IMG/VR virus record: IMGVR_UViG_3300035181_001174
Span: 1 to 24,060 of that record
Origin: a virus
Taxonomy: Duplodnaviria > Caudoviricetes
Length of the DNA stretch: 24,060 nucleotides
Reading direction: 5' to 3' (one strand)
Part shown: piece after piece, positions 16,969 through 24,060 of the stretch
How the letters are laid out: every line of letters starts with the position of its first letter
How positions within the stretch are numbered: position 1 is the stretch's first letter
Translations under genes and position numbers: made by a program
Notes under the pieces: generated by a model
The model's database searches: none
Told to the model about the DNA's origin: nothing
What the model saw: only the letters and a program-made list of their open reading frames with translations

Positions 16969-17181
16969 CTACGCCTCTCCGTCCCATGGCTCGGGCCAAT
17001 CCGCCCATGCAATGATCGGGAGCTCGAATGGCTCGAAGGAGTCGCTGTACCAGAACCCGTCGATATAGGCCGCGTGAATCACGAACCGGCCCGACTGGTC
17101 GCCATGAACAGTCACGAGTTTCATTCCCGGGTTATCCGGTAGCCGATCTGCGCTCCTGTTCCATGTCAGTTCAGGCATCAC
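16969..17181 (-). CDS. DUF551-like small protein (paralog 1)
   Basis: W...DRLP...LVT...W...IAWADWPEP pattern. Confidence 0.75.
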   Translation of the reverse strand: MMPELTWNRSADRLPDNPGMKLVTVHGDQSGRFVIHAAYIDGFWYSDSFEPFELPIIAWADWPEPWDGEA

Positions 17182-17392
17182 ACTCCCCCGCCTCTCCGTC
17201 CCACGGCTCCGGCTGCTCCGCCCACGCCAGCACGCGCGCGGTCAGTCGCTCAAACCCGTCGAGATACCACTGGCCACTGATGTACGCCGCCATCGCGACG
17301 AACCGCTGCCCGCGGCGCTCAATTGTCACCAGCACGCGTCCGTGGGTCTCCGGCAGGCATTCGCTGCAGGGGTGCCAAATCCGTTTAGACAT
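17171..17392 (-). CDS. DUF551-like small protein (paralog 2)
   Basis: WHPCSECLPE...VLVT...W...VLAWAEQPEP; start MSKR at 17392. Confidence 0.75.
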   Translation of the reverse strand: MSKRIWHPCSECLPETHGRVLVTIERRGQRFVAMAAYISGQWYLDGFERLTARVLAWAEQPEPWDGEAGECDA

Positions 17393-17996
17393 CGTCCTCT
17401 CCTCCGTTCTCCGCGGCATCGCAGTTCTCCTCGCCCAGGAACGAGATGAACCCGCCGCCGTCCATTCTCACCGTCGCTTCAAACCAGCCGTCTCGAATGG
17501 GATCGAAGCGCATCATGGTGATTCTGGTATCGCCTCCTGCATCGTTGTGTTGCCGCCATATTGGGTAGAAATACCACGCGCCGGGCGCATAGGTGAGGGC
17601 CACGAGGGACCATGCCGAAGCGTCATCGCCCGCACCCTCATATGCATCGTTTTCCTCTTTCAGCAGGTAGTCCCACACTGGGCCACGCAGACGTCGCACG
17701 CCGTCCTGCCCGGCGCGTTCCTGTCCCCTCATAACGAGGGTTATGCGTATCTCACAGGAGATCAGGGCCCTCAATATTCGCGCGGCCTCCTGCAGACTGC
17801 TACGCCCGAAGGCGCCATTGTCAGCCCGCGGATACCCCATTGCCGAGCAGAATCGATCGACGTCAAGAGCAATGGACGCATATGACTCTCCTCGGTTTTC
17901 GTACCACTGGTCCAGCAATGCATTATGGGCCCTCGCCATTTGCGCGTCCTCCCGTGAACGCGCTATTGAGAGATCATCCAACTCAGACGCCATCAT
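17385..17996 (-). CDS. Hypothetical protein
   Basis: Start MMASEL after GGAGG; shares C-terminal GGFISFLGEENCDA with upstream gene. Confidence 0.65.
   Translation of the reverse strand: MMASELDDLSIARSREDAQMARAHNALLDQWYENRGESYASIALDVDRFCSAMGYPRADNGAFGRSSLQEAARILRALISCEIRITLVMRGQERAGQDGVRRLRGPVWDYLLKEENDAYEGAGDDASAWSLVALTYAPGAWYFYPIWRQHNDAGGDTRITMMRFDPIRDGWFEATVRMDGGGFISFLGEENCDAAENGGEDDV
17419..17453. repeat. 35-bp direct repeat, copy 1
   Basis: TCGCAGTTCTCCTCGCCCAGGAACGAGATGAACCC identical to 18020-18054. Confidence 0.95.
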
Positions 17997-18165
17997 TGCC
18001 TCCGTCCTCCTCCTCGGCGTCGCAGTTCTCCTCGCCCAGGAACGAGATGAACCCACCTCTGTCTAGCCTCGCTACCGCCACGGTGTAATCCTCCGCCTCG
18101 ACGATGCAGACTATCGTGCCCGTCGCTCCATCTGCTCGCCGCCGAATCCTGTCACCGACCCGCAT
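17983..18165 (-). CDS. Small SH3/KOW-like protein
   Basis: MRVGDRIRRRADGATGTIVCI pattern. Confidence 0.6.
   Translation of the reverse strand: MRVGDRIRRRADGATGTIVCIVEAEDYTVAVARLDRGGFISFLGEENCDAEEEDGGNDGV
18020..18054. repeat. 35-bp direct repeat, copy 2
   Basis: Identical to 17419-17453. Confidence 0.95.
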
Positions 18166-19202: not shown

Positions 19203-19406
19203 TCATCTCGCCACTTCCAGCGGCGGCAAAAGCTGTTTCAGCGTCGGGGCAATGTCCTGTGGGCGCGTCACGGTCACTGTCACGACCTGCGGGCCGGGAT
19301 CTGGCTTGCGCGCGAACGCAGTGAGCACCCAGGCGAGGCAGATCATCCCGACGCAGGCGCACAACGCCTTCATGTAAAGACCCGCGACTCGGTACCGGTC
19401 AGTCAT
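19203..19406 (-). CDS. Small membrane protein
   Basis: Hydrophobic ALCACVGMICLAWVLTAFA; ATGA coupling to recT. Confidence 0.6.
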   Translation of the reverse strand: MTDRYRVAGLYMKALCACVGMICLAWVLTAFARKPDPGPQVVTVTVTRPQDIAPTLKQLLPPLEVAR

Positions 19407-20212
19407 CGCCCGCCCTCCTTGCCGTTAGCCTCCGGCGCGGCCTCGATCACCTCGCCCGTCGCGGGATCGACGTCACCCTCCAGCACCGCCGGCGTGTAGG
19501 TCTCGCCCTCCCCGGCGTCGAGCGAGACGGCCTTGGCCATCTCGACGCTCATCGGCAGGTATTTAGCCAGGCGGCGGACGACCGTCTTGCGCGCCATCTC
19601 GGCCCAGTCCGTCTCCCAAGGCCCCGCCGCGCCCGACTTGCTCCGCTTGCGGATTGCCTCGATCTCCGACCGGGTCATCACGTCAAACATCGGCGTGTCC
19701 GTCCCGCGCAATTTGGCCACGGCATAGACGTACCTGACCTTCGATGGGTCGCGGTCACCGTCGTAACGCGGGTTATGGACGATCTCCGGATGCGTCCCAA
19801 GGCGCACATCGAATTCGTCCCCCTCGTATACCACGAATGCCTGCACGGTCTCGACCTCGCCACTCCGGCGGGCGAGAGTGATCAGCCCCCGGTAGCCCAC
19901 GATCAACTGGCACTGATCCTTGTAGGGGAGCAGGTAGCATTCGCCCAGCGCGCTCCCGGGGTCCAGCCCCAGCTCGGCGGCCATCATCGCCGAGCGATAG
20001 ATGCTTACCATCGTGCAGTTGCGCAGGGCCGGCGTCCGCGCGACGCAGTTGAGCACTACCCGCGCGAGACGGTCAGCAGAGACGTGCCGGGCCGCCGCCT
20101 GCGCGATGTCGGCCTTGCGCGCCTCCAGATACTGTGCGAGGGTCCGCAGGTCGTTTCCGACCGGCTTGTTGACATTCACCGTCGCCACCGCCGTGTTCGT
20201 CACTGTCATCAT
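19403..20212 (-). CDS. recT: RecT single-strand annealing recombinase
   Basis: AAELGLDPGSALGECYLLPY, QLIVGYRGLITLARRSG, VYEGDEF, PWETDWAEMARKTVVRRLAKYLP. Confidence 0.95.
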   Translation of the reverse strand: MMTVTNTAVATVNVNKPVGNDLRTLAQYLEARKADIAQAAARHVSADRLARVVLNCVARTPALRNCTMVSIYRSAMMAAELGLDPGSALGECYLLPYKDQCQLIVGYRGLITLARRSGEVETVQAFVVYEGDEFDVRLGTHPEIVHNPRYDGDRDPSKVRYVYAVAKLRGTDTPMFDVMTRSEIEAIRKRSKSGAAGPWETDWAEMARKTVVRRLAKYLPMSVEMAKAVSLDAGEGETYTPAVLEGDVDPATGEVIEAAPEANGKEGGR

Positions 20213-21150
20213 CCTCTCCTCTCCGTTTTGAATGGCATCAGAAACACTCTCGGGCCATGCTCCGGCGTATGCCTGCGGATGAGCTCCTCGCTTGGGTTCA
20301 ACTCCATGGCAATCGCCTTCCAGTCCGGCGCGCCCTTGCGATTCCTCCAGGTGAACACCCCGCGAGACGTGCGCAGCGCCTTAGCGAATCCCATCGCCGC
20401 CTTGAGACGGGCGGTACACTGCTCCTCGGCCTGCTCCGCGCCTTCGCACGCCGCCCGCGCAGCCTCTAGCCGGGCGACGACCTCCTCCAGCTCGTCATCG
20501 GCGTCGATCGCCGGCCCCACGCTCCACGGGTAGAATCTATCCAGCAATCGCCCATCGTTCTCCGTCGGATCGGGCGGCACCCCGCGCCGAACGTTGTAGT
20601 CCCAGAACTCGATGGCAGCCGCTTCCATCTGCCGGGCAACGGGAATGTCGTACTCGATCTCGTAGATGCGAACATCGTCGACCCCAAAGAGGGCGATCAA
20701 GTACGCCAGGGGCCCCCGCCCGGTGACGTGCATCTGCCAAACGATTTGCAGCCGCTCATGGAGCGGGATAACGTCACTACCGGACGGACCGTACTCGTTC
20801 GCGATGTGCGGCGAGTGCGTCTTGATCTCCACCAGACGCTTGTCCCTGACGCGCTCGTAGTCGGGCGACGCGGCAATGAACCGGGCCGGCTCCGGCCAGC
20901 GGCAGAACGCGGCATTGCGCAGGACCTCGCCGGTCTCGTCCGTGTAGATGCGGGCCACGTATGGCTCCATCCGCAGACCGCGCAGCATTTGCGCGTTTGG
21001 CGGTTCAGACTCGATCTCGCCCGTCTTTTCGAGATAAACCGCTAACGGTGTCTTCCACGGGCTTGCGCCCATAATCGCCACGACGTCCGTCGCGCCCAAG
21101 TACGTGCGGCGCTCGCGCAGCCATTCGGCGTGCTGTTCGTCGGTCATCAT
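20209..21150 (-). CDS. YqaJ-like (lambda-exonuclease family) recombination nuclease
   Basis: EWLRERRTYLGATDVVAIMGASPWKTPLAVYLEKTG, ASPD, VEIKT, Q..WQMHVTG; adjacent to recT. Confidence 0.92.
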   Translation of the reverse strand: MMTDEQHAEWLRERRTYLGATDVVAIMGASPWKTPLAVYLEKTGEIESEPPNAQMLRGLRMEPYVARIYTDETGEVLRNAAFCRWPEPARFIAASPDYERVRDKRLVEIKTHSPHIANEYGPSGSDVIPLHERLQIVWQMHVTGRGPLAYLIALFGVDDVRIYEIEYDIPVARQMEAAAIEFWDYNVRRGVPPDPTENDGRLLDRFYPWSVGPAIDADDELEEVVARLEAARAACEGAEQAEEQCTARLKAAMGFAKALRTSRGVFTWRNRKGAPDWKAIAMELNPSEELIRRHTPEHGPRVFLMPFKTERRG

Positions 21151-21656
21151 AGTTCCACCATCGAGATGAGTCTGAGCGCCTCTTCGATATGCAGAACGGC
21201 GTCCGACAGGAACGTGCACCGTTCGATGCGTTTCGCCTCAATGTCACCGGCGAGCGTTTGAGCGGTCCTAATCTCGTCGATGTATGCCTGCAGGTCGCGC
21301 TCGAACCGTTTCAATCTGAGTATGAGCCGAGCAACGATCTCCAGATCATCGATGCACGCCCATGGATACTGACCGTTATACCGTTCATCGTCTGTCATGT
21401 TGTGTGCCAAAGGATTCCCTCCTTGAGCTACGTCAGCAATGCTCGACACCGCCCCCACCATGCGCCTGAGAGCACCGTTCAGATAGGCATCATCGCGTTG
21501 GGCAATCGCGGTTTCGCTTGCGCTATAGTTAGCTCGCGTGGACGCCGCGTAGCCTGCGATGAACGCCTTGTGCGCCAATGGCTTCAGCTCGTTAGCGAGA
21601 CGAGACAGTTCGTCTCTGATTTTCCCGAGTTCGGCGCGATGTTCGTTGGTCATCAT
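21147..21656 (-). CDS. Hypothetical helical protein
   Basis: 169 aa; ATGA coupled on both sides. Confidence 0.7.
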   Translation of the reverse strand: MMTNEHRAELGKIRDELSRLANELKPLAHKAFIAGYAASTRANYSASETAIAQRDDAYLNGALRRMVGAVSSIADVAQGGNPLAHNMTDDERYNGQYPWACIDDLEIVARLILRLKRFERDLQAYIDEIRTAQTLAGDIEAKRIERCTFLSDAVLHIEEALRLISMVEL

Positions 21657-22596: not shown

Positions 22597-22839
22597 TCAT
22601 CGAGCAGCAGCGGCAGCAGTTTGCTCCTGCTCGTCGATCTCTGCAAGCGTCCTGCCCAGTTTGTCCAGCGCGATCTCCTTGCATATCCGCGCGAGTTCGT
22701 CGCAGCACGGCTTTTCTGGTACGACCGCCTCCCTCTCAATCGCCGACAGGAGCGACCATCGAACGCCTGCGCGTCGGCAGAGCTCGGCCTGTGTCACCTC
22801 CAGGGCCCTCCGCCTCGCTCTCAGCTCCCGTCCCGTCAT
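22597..22839 (-). CDS. XRE-family HTH regulator (Cro-like position)
   Basis: ELRARRRALEVTQAELCRRAGVRWSLLSAIER; GGAGGTGA SD; first gene after promoter. Confidence 0.85.
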   Translation of the reverse strand: MTGRELRARRRALEVTQAELCRRAGVRWSLLSAIEREAVVPEKPCCDELARICKEIALDKLGRTLAEIDEQEQTAAAAAR

Positions 22840-22859: not shown

Positions 22860-22888
22860 ATGATACTGTGGCGACGCGTAGTTGTCAA
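22860..22888 (-). promoter_or_regulatory. Sigma70 promoter (leftward early operon)
   Basis: TTGACA (22888-22883), 17 nt, TATCAT (22865-22860); A-tract upstream. Confidence 0.85.
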
Positions 22889-22941
22889 TAGGTTCCGACA
22901 GTTTTTTTCTGGACGTGGCCAACGCCTGCCCGGTTTCCTGA

Positions 22942-22954
22942 GCGTAAACTACGC
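22942..22954. promoter_or_regulatory. Putative operator palindrome
   Basis: GCGTA-AAC-TACGC midway between promoters; GCGTAG half-sites also at 22876 and 23013 within both promoter spacers. Confidence 0.5.
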
Positions 22955-23006
22955 ACGAGCGCGCTCGCCGAGGCCGAAAAAAACTTGAGATTTTTGCCGC
23001 TCCCTA

Positions 23007-23035
23007 TTGACAGCGTAGATACAACGTGGTATAGT
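23007..23035 (+). promoter_or_regulatory. Sigma70 promoter with extended -10 (rightward operon)
   Basis: TTGACA (23007-23012), 17 nt, TATAGT (23030-23035) preceded by TGG. Confidence 0.88.
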
Positions 23036-23056
23036 ATGGTCGTAGTGAGGAACCGA

Positions 23057-23086
23057 TAAGCCGCCACCCACCAAGGGGCGCACGGA
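23057..23086 (+). repeat. Start-associated bulged hairpin motif, copy A
   Basis: TAAGC CGCC A CC caccaa GG GGCG CACGGA. Confidence 0.65.
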
Positions 23087-23099
23087 ACCGGAGAGAACA

Positions 23100-23309
23100 A
23101 TGATCACCATCACCCAGACCAACGGAAACGGCCGGAACATGATCCGCGGGTGTCGCGTCACCATCCGCCGAGATGGCGAGCTCATCGACCAATTCGTGGT
23201 GCCCGTCATGTGGCACGGTGTCGACTACTGCAAGGCGCATCCGACCGGTCGGTATGGCCAGCGGTTCTATGACGCTCTGGAGGCCGCGGTCCAGGAGTTC
23301 AACGTCTAA
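23100..23309 (+). CDS. Hypothetical early protein
   Basis: 69 aa, GGAGAG SD, first gene after promoter. Confidence 0.75.
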   Translation: MITITQTNGNGRNMIRGCRVTIRRDGELIDQFVVPVMWHGVDYCKAHPTGRYGQRFYDALEAAVQEFNV

Positions 23310-23311
23310 TC

Positions 23312-23380
23312 TGCCGAAACCGGCCTCCAGGCCGGTCCACGGGGAGGCGGTTCCCCCCATGCTGATGAGGCAAACCCCGC
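23312..23380 (+). ncRNA. Hammerhead ribozyme, type II
   Basis: TGCC-GAAA-CCGGCC(tcca)GGCCGG-TC-stem I-CTGATGA-GGCA; complete core, GUC cleavage triplet 23335-23337. Confidence 0.88.
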
Positions 23381-23381
23381 A

Positions 23382-23412
23382 CAAGACGCTACCGTGACCG
23401 GAGCGCAGCGGA
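23382..23412 (+). repeat. Start-associated bulged hairpin motif, copy B
   Basis: CAAGA CGCT A CC gtgacc GG AGCG CAGCGGA. Confidence 0.7.
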
Positions 23413-23423
23413 GGAGAAGGACG

Positions 23424-23675
23424 ATGCGATACACAGTTGAGAACACGTTCCACCACACGCAGGCGACGTTTGTGGAGCGCCCAGACGGTACGATCAGCGC
23501 GCGCACCATGCGCCGGGTCCAGCGCGCTCTCTGCCCTAGCCCGACCTGCCTCTGCGACACTTCCCCGGCGAGCGGATATGACGTGGAGTGGTTGAGCGGC
23601 TTCGAGCCAGTGTACGACGGGCCGCGGATCGTGGCATACAAGGTCTGGCATGGCGACCCCAACTATATCGACTGA
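23424..23675 (+). CDS. Hypothetical early protein
   Basis: MRYTVENTFHHTQ...LCPSPTCLC; GGAGGAG SD; start at ATG 23424. Confidence 0.75.
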   Translation: MRYTVENTFHHTQATFVERPDGTISARTMRRVQRALCPSPTCLCDTSPASGYDVEWLSGFEPVYDGPRIVAYKVWHGDPNYID

Positions 23676-23721
23676 CGTACAAGCCGCGCCCGCCCGGCAA
23701 TAGGCGGGCCCCTACATCGCG

Positions 23722-23751
23722 TAAGCCGTCACCGACCCGGGACGCAGCGGA
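23722..23751 (+). repeat. Start-associated bulged hairpin motif, copy C
   Basis: TAAGC CGTC A CC gaccc GG GACG CAGCGGA. Confidence 0.7.
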
Positions 23752-23764
23752 GGAGCAGGACGAA

Positions 23765-24060
23765 ATGACACGTGAACAGGTATGGCAGGAGATGCCGATC
23801 GACCTCGCCAACGCGGCGCTTCGCATTGCCCGCGCCTACGAGCATGGGTGGGCGCGTTCCAGCGTGGTGCCGCAGGGTGAGGCATACTGGGATTTTGATG
23901 ATCAGCGCCCCACGCTGGAGGAGATCGAAGAGGCGACGCCTGAGGGCGCGATGGGCAAGGGGATAACTGGGCCGTCGATCGACTTCACGGGAGGCCGTTT
24001 CCATGTGCAGCACACGACGCTTACCGGGCGGACGATGATCGACGTGTCCCTGGGACCTGG
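23765..24060 (+). CDS. Hypothetical protein, paralog of 12447-13130 (3' end outside window)
   Basis: Not in ORF track. MTREQVWQEMPIDLANAALRIARAYEHGW...; GGAGGAG SD; open to edge. Confidence 0.8.
   Translation, partial: MTREQVWQEMPIDLANAALRIARAYEHGWARSSVVPQGEAYWDFDDQRPTLEEIEEATPEGAMGKGITGPSIDFTGGRFHVQHTTLTGRTMIDVSLGP

Follow-up and report, generated by a model that had tools for sequence, protein, structure and literature searches.

A type II hammerhead ribozyme with a strain-private stem I mismatch between two small genes of an uncultured tailed phage

The ribozyme lies among rightward genes of a tailed phage

The window, that is, the whole stretch of DNA analysed here, is an entire virus record of 24,060 bases. 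On the leftward arm lie genes for terminase, portal, protease, major capsid, tail completion, and tape-measure proteins together with a D5-type primase, RecT, a YqaJ exonuclease, and an HTH protein, and this gene content identifies the virus as a tailed phage. The YqaJ and RecT genes are found at 19403–21219. A search with the YqaJ protein returned five loci, namely this phage and four relatives at 84–89% identity (L124–L127), and a longer contig of the same phage (L123) is 100% identical to the window across 11,849 bases. A tyrosine integrase (PF00589) was found in none of the five records, which may be incomplete. One RecT relative at 35% identity occurs in a Nitrospiraceae bin, which is too distant to point to a host.

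Three genes are read rightward on the plus strand. Gene 1 (23100–23309) encodes 69 aa and stops 2 nt before the ribozyme, gene 2 (23424–23675) encodes 83 aa, and gene 3 (23765–24060) is the start of a 225-aa ORF that is complete in L123. None of the three belongs to a known family or has a Pfam or PHROG match; homologues of genes 1 and 2 were found but are nameless, and an Atlas look-up on the rightward genes gave one lead at 0.75 and no usable match. Upstream, a sigma-70-type promoter at 23007–23035 (+; TTGACA-17-TATAGT with an extended TG, 11 of 12 matches) occupies the same site in L124–L127 and is likely to drive the three genes; the promoter scan found three sites where 0.3 were expected. 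The original prediction had placed the ribozyme in an early phage operon. The tailed-phage genes and the same-strand promoter fit a phage operon, and we infer the term "early" from the layout only. No terminator-like site was found in 22860–24060.

A second near-consensus sigma-70 promoter at 22888–22860 (−) diverges from the first. Within 22860–23035 the two promoters have related spacers with A/T tracts between them, and the HTH gene (22597–22839, −) adjoins the pair, an arrangement in which shared operator sites are possible. In two of the four relatives, the divergent promoters are separated by an inserted gene for a D12-class adenine methyltransferase, which has a promoter of its own (L125 5760–6917, −, and the equivalent in L127). 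On the other side, the gap between genes 2 and 3 (23676–23764) has no ribozyme in the window and folds as a plain hairpin plus a leader. A G+C-rich hairpin at 23687–23708 (+), where L124 and L127 have a ribozyme, was rejected as a typical terminator for lack of a T-run. At E up to 2, no further ribozyme was found in the early region (L128, L129).

A complete type II hammerhead with a loop I pseudoknot

Positions 23312–23379 (+) match the Rfam model Hammerhead_II (RF02276) at 42.0 bits, above its gathering score of 37 (E 1.3e-5). The match spans the full model (positions 1–66 of 66) and is the sole Rfam match in the window. Our own type II descriptor also matched once in the window, and 2 of 200 dinucleotide shuffles contained any match. 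The core CUGANGA, GAAA, and the NUH triplet are all present, and the elements follow the order stem II, GAAA, stem III, NUH, stem I, CUGANGA, and stem II, with stem II open. The hammerhead motif is real and an ordinary type II member, complete and with the topology and canonical core that the original prediction had described, and every sequence element listed in that prediction between 23312 and 23380 lies at its position. As in RF02276, looped stems I and III and a short open stem II surround the canonical core, and a 4-bp pseudoknot connects loop I and the tail. Unlike the class, the window copy has a C-A at the third stem I pair and is followed by a family-specific leader hairpin.

The TAA stop of gene 1 (23307–09) is followed by TC and then by the ribozyme, which with its pseudoknot tail covers 23312–23376 (+) according to the Rfam match, conservation, and covariation. 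After the 5′ side of stem II (TGCC, 23312–15), GAAA (23316–19), the stem III hairpin, and the GUC triplet fill 23316–23337. Stem III pairs CCGGCC (23320–25) with GGCCGG (23330–35) across a TCCA loop (23326–29), and as a hairpin on the 5′ product it has a predicted energy of −13.5 kcal/mol. In the GUC triplet (GTC, 23335–37; T23336, C23337), cleavage is predicted after C23337, a position that the canonical core and the Rfam match corroborate. The stem I hairpin (23338–23361) includes the C23340-A23359 mismatch already reported in the original prediction and a bulged A23345, beyond which G23346-C23354 and G23347-C23353 extend the stem up to the 5-nt loop I (CGGTT, 23348–52). The core CUGAUGA (CTGATGA, 23362–23368), recognized from the sequence and the Rfam match, leads to the 3′ side of stem II (GGCA, 23369–72) and the pseudoknot tail AACC (23373–23376). 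Thus placed 2 nt past the gene 1 stop, the ribozyme has its predicted cut 86 nt ahead of the gene 2 start, and the Shine-Dalgarno sequence of gene 2 sits 33 nt beyond the pseudoknot tail, outside the ribozyme.

Conservation and covariation among relatives

A type II hammerhead was found in five of the five records, with eight copies in total, seven of which score above the Rfam cut-off. By type, these are five A copies (orthologues, window's included), two B paralogues, and one C paralogue, and loop I of the window copy is equal in size to those of the B and C paralogues. One ribozyme is present in this phage's 46-kb record and two each in L125, L126, and L127. All four related contigs (L124–L127) carry an orthologue of the window ribozyme, and the original prediction thereby withstands its own refuting condition on homologous loci, failure to conserve the core and stems. 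Across the eight copies, 98.7% of 152 cells pair, compared with 26–51% in a partner-sliding control, and four pairs show double-sided changes, of which three belong to stem I and the fourth to the pseudoknot. This covariation separates three paralogous lineages and hence represents few independent events; within the five type A orthologues alone, no compensatory change was found.

These comparisons refine two elements. Stem II had been described as TGCC/GGCA, and its conserved part is the 3-bp GCC/GGC helix (23313–23315 with 23369–71), the fourth pair, U23312-A23372, being present in only 4 of 8 copies. For the pseudoknot, loop I (GCGGTT) had been paired with a tail consisting of AACC and CCGC. 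The GGUU/AACC portion stands: it is 100% paired in the eight copies with one compensatory column (U-A/C-G), and because the loop YGGYU and the tail ARCC occur in all eight, the conserved pseudoknot is assigned as four base pairs between G23349–T23352 and A23373–C23376. The CCGC portion was rejected as a partner, since CGC 23378–80 forms the basal stem of a covarying leader hairpin by pairing with 23408–10.

One family member, at L126 427–495 (−), falls below the Rfam cut-off with 32.1 bits. It abuts the following sigma-70 promoter and could therefore only shape the 3′ end of the upstream gene.

A bulged-A leader hairpin precedes each ribosome binding site

The leader hairpin heads the RBS of each of the three rightward genes and is found nowhere else in the window. 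Copy 1 (23053–23085, +) precedes the RBS of gene 1 and is composed of a basal stem, an internal loop, and a bulged-A hairpin. Copy 2 (23378–23410, +) has the Shine-Dalgarno sequence GGAGGAG (23410–16) directly after it, and copy 3 (23718–23749, +) stands before gene 3, in the gap that has no ribozyme. Copies were found in the window, L124–L127, L135, L136, and L139. In an alignment of 19 copies, several of which are closely related and three of which come from other contigs without a ribozyme nearby, we observed nine consensus pairs, five of them changed on both sides, as well as G-U pairs and the bulged A. The hairpin has no Rfam match at E up to 2. It could serve as a 5′ stabiliser or as a protein-binding site for translational control.

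Predicted separation of the gene 1 and gene 2 messages

Type II hammerheads are very common in bacteria, and Perreault 2011 (PMC3088659) describes their loop I pseudoknot, notes that the ribozymes flank single prophage genes of inconstant identity, and puts forward the idea of processing into gene-length messages. In the same study, 14 of 18 tested hammerheads conforming to the consensus were active, and three tandem phage or prophage arrangements cut native polycistronic RNAs of ~2 kb in vitro, one of them also in E. coli. The window ribozyme, which adds one example to a class known since 2011, likewise flanks single genes of changing identity in a phage genome; in contrast to the clustered prophage hammerheads described there, the window record holds a single copy. 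The supplementary alignments of Perreault 2011 may hold relatives of it. The purpose of self-cleaving ribozymes in bacteria and phages is still largely elusive (PMC6765202), and searches of mainly open-access literature listed no study, beyond Perreault 2011, that puts the in vivo role of phage intergenic hammerheads to the test.

It is probable that the type II hammerhead cuts a presumed early transcript after C23337 and yields separate gene 1 and gene 2 messages. A transcript from the promoter at 23007–35 would run through the gap, where stem II and the pseudoknot would form and the 2′-OH of C23337 would attack the next phosphate. No RNA data set containing the locus was listed, a result that carries no information about expression. 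Hammerhead cleavage takes place 3′ of C17 and leaves a 2′,3′-cyclic phosphate and a 5′-OH (PMC6765202). The upstream piece would then have the stem III hairpin at its end, with a 2′,3′-cyclic phosphate, similar to a terminator-protected 3′ end, and the downstream piece would carry a 5′-OH on its first base, C23338, and then run through the stem I hairpin and the leader hairpin to the RBS. In this way, each gene would receive a fixed hairpin-capped end regardless of the gene upstream, and the 3-bp stem II, being short, would let the cleaved pieces separate. Separately capped messages would suit often-swapped genes, and the effect of the 5′-OH end would depend on the nucleases of the host. The probabilities that we attach to separate messages and to the alternatives discussed below overlap in part.

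The arrangement resembles the engineered RiboJ (PMC9964548), in which a self-cleaving ribozyme and a hairpin before the RBS give a standard, context-independent 5′ end. RiboJ is synthetic and placed after a promoter, whereas the layout in the window is natural and lies between genes, and insulation by it is suggested by analogy.

The C-A mismatch is a minority allele

C23340 opposes A23359 at the third stem I pair of the window copy, and the other four orthologues have G at that place, making A23359 private to the window among the five. Counted from the cut site, pairs 1.1 and 1.2 are possible and pair 1.3 is the C-A. In contigs of four public DNA runs (X1–X4), the G of the C-G allele accounts for 59.6 of 69.3, 95.2 of 95.2, 466.4 of 471.2, and 154.4 of 154.4 units of depth, respectively. 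A 119-base contig with a depth of 9.7 from run X1, which is maybe the source sample of the window itself, shows no difference from the window, from which we conclude that the C-A mismatch is a genuine minority allele of the strain. The only variable core position listed in the read contigs, differences near contig ends being unlisted, is 23366, the free N7.

A possible though somewhat unlikely alternative to separate messages is that the family ribozyme works and the window copy is mostly misfolded, so that genes 1 and 2 stay on one message. The private A23359 and the dominance of G in the four runs speak for it, and so does predicted folding. In a model that omits the pseudoknot and Mg2+, the first stem I pair of the window copy has a predicted pairing of 0.00–0.05 in all seven flank settings, compared with 0.63–0.97 in the L124, L126, and L127 orthologues and 0.02–0.90 in the L125 orthologue, which carries its own mismatch. 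Relative to the minimum-energy structure, the hammerhead fold costs 4.1 kcal/mol in the window copy and 1.3–2.4 kcal/mol in the other seven. Among 113 IMG/VR matches, described in the next section, the window copy ranks third lowest in predicted folding, and stem I is broken at the third pair in only six, window's included. According to a review (PMC3138052), mismatches close to the core are not tolerated in hammerhead catalysis, but the large penalty given there concerns the pair directly 3′ of the cut and not the third pair. In addition, the window copy retains the first two stem I pairs, six distal G-C pairs, an undamaged core, and the pseudoknot. Because the folding model leaves out the pseudoknot and Mg2+, and because 12 of the 113 natural matches also fall under 0.05, the low predicted core pairing is a caution about the window copy and not proof of inactivity. 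The original prediction had the ribozyme processing a polycistronic mRNA, an interpretation put forward, and in part examined experimentally, for other hammerheads of phages (PMC3088659); full activity of the window copy is the part left unsupported, because the strain-private C-A mismatch cuts its predicted core pairing to at most 0.05. From these models, the window copy is probably slower than the C-G form carried by most of the population.

Damage is also seen in other family copies. The type A copy of L125 has a stem I mismatch, and the paralogous type B hammerhead of this contig (5345–5413, −) has C for U4 in the core (CCGAUGA), a variant that PMC3088659 cites as slower in vitro. These damaged copies are consistent with relaxed selection. 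A loose end at window position 23364 in runs X1–X4 corresponds to a further paralogue with C at U4.

The stop-ribozyme-RBS arrangement is common in IMG/VR

One narrow pattern retrieved 122 IMG/VR loci, with an estimate of ~420 stored stretches. These loci contain 117 distinct cores, window's included, of which four without stem III or stem I pairing were dropped to leave 113; the pattern fixed stem II and the core and is hence uninformative on their variation. A stop triplet is found within 12 nt upstream in 92 of the 113 (30.9% at random positions, n = 4356), and 85 are followed within 90 nt by an RBS with its start codon (25.7% at random). For the 73 matches with long flanks, which were used to examine ORF layout, an RBS-led ORF ends within 45 nt upstream in 57 (9.9% at random positions) and another starts within 100 nt downstream in 66 (30% at random), both flanking ORFs being present in 54; the median gap from the stop is 2 nt. 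The stop-ribozyme-RBS arrangement of the window is the norm for IMG/VR type II hammerheads. A pseudoknot of at least four pairs is possible in 52 of the 113, whereas 500 partner shuffles averaged 12.4 and reached at most 22. Strong sigma-70 promoters are not enriched near the 73 matches (17 on the same strand and 15 on the opposite strand). In other IMG/VR contigs (L062/L071, L074/L075, L065, L021, and L045), stretches of a few kb contain at least two type II hammerheads, some of them near-identical.

The close spacing behind stop codons bears on another, unlikely explanation, in which cleavage lowers or times expression, either because the 5′-OH piece is degraded as after glmS cleavage or because the ribosome terminating on gene 1 gates folding of the ribozyme. 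The footprint of a terminating ribosome extends over ribozyme starts that lie up to 3 nt past the stop. In 41 of the 57 matches with an upstream ORF, the ribozyme starts at most 3 nt after it and falls inside this footprint, and on gene 1 such a ribosome would cover the 5′ strand of stem II and GAAA; the tight spacing, however, may be plain genome packing. Decay has a precedent in glmS, where cleavage precedes decay of the RNA (PMC6765202), but the downstream piece here is predicted to be hairpin-capped at its 5′ end and no ligand-binding part is evident. Direct uncovering of the RBS by cleavage was rejected, as the RBS lies outside the ribozyme, 33 nt past its tail.

Gene exchange around the ribozyme

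The gene order after the promoter differs in each relative. With genes denoted by their length in aa and ribozymes by type, the order is promoter, g69, A, g83, g225 in the window; promoter, g126, promoter, g69, A, g225 in L124; promoter, g71, B, g126, promoter, g95, A, g83, g225 in L125; promoter, g86, C, promoter, g69, A, and the contig end in L126; and promoter, g71, B, g95, A, g225 in L127. The type A ribozyme thus follows a 69-aa gene in the window, L124, and L126 and a 95-aa gene in L125 and L127, and it precedes an 83-aa gene in the window and L125 and a 225-aa gene in L124 and L127. The element in front of a gene also varies: L124 has a promoter and L125 a ribozyme before the 126-aa gene, and L125 has a promoter and L127 a ribozyme before the 95-aa gene. 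Gene 3 has no ribozyme in the window yet has one in L124 and L127, indicating that the ribozyme is dispensable there. Identity begins at 23312 for L125 and at 23313 for L127, where the ribozyme itself opens, and another gene lies upstream; identity breaks also at the leaders, and the gene slots hold differing genes. Joints of DNA contigs near the ribozyme, whose sides are 18–42 letters at 85% likeness, give weak support only, and among the contig joints listed none goes back. The depth peak over the ribozyme in DNA contigs was not used as a measure of copy number.

We tentatively consider a broader picture, which is rather unlikely as a whole, in which the hammerhead is a natural insulator standing in for a promoter, the modules are also recombination borders, and the early genes are plug-in cassettes. 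In this picture, a promoter or ribozyme, the bulged-A leader, and the RBS would equip all accessory genes with one type of 5′ end. A precedent for shuffling at repeated regulatory modules is provided by the PeSL cassettes of T4-type phages (Arbiol et al. 2010, PMC2839356), and here too a repeated module borders exchanged genes. The PeSL stem-loops are terminators joined to an early promoter in T4-type myoviruses, whereas here a bulged-A leader preceded by a ribozyme or a promoter forms the module, in a siphovirus-like phage with records of 32–46 kb, known from contigs alone.

This precedent, the flanking genes that vary among relatives, the start of identity at the first bases of the ribozyme, and the nearby YqaJ and RecT genes would also suit a purely DNA-level role, in which the locus is a conserved repeated junction for accessory-gene swaps by a RecE/RecT-type recombinase and cleavage is incidental. 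We regard this as quite improbable, given that homology needs neither an invariant catalytic core nor compensatory changes in stem I and the pseudoknot, although a DNA-level role and cleavage are not mutually exclusive. A chance look-alike in G+C-rich DNA, suggested by a minimum-energy fold of the ribozyme region that differs from the hammerhead fold (z-score −1.19), is refuted by the Rfam match, the shuffles, the covariation, and conservation in relatives despite changing flanking genes.

The phage is uncultured, which limits direct tests. Among the relatives, the same genes come preceded by a promoter, by a ribozyme, or by neither, forming a tidy natural series, and the natural weak alleles (the C-A mismatch and U4C) add to a ready set for reporter tests of the effect of cleavage. 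In the leftward arm, repeats of 39 bases (16972–17010 and 17189–17227) and 54 bases (17409–17462 and 18010–18063) are located at identity breaks with the relatives, hinting at a second set of cassette borders.
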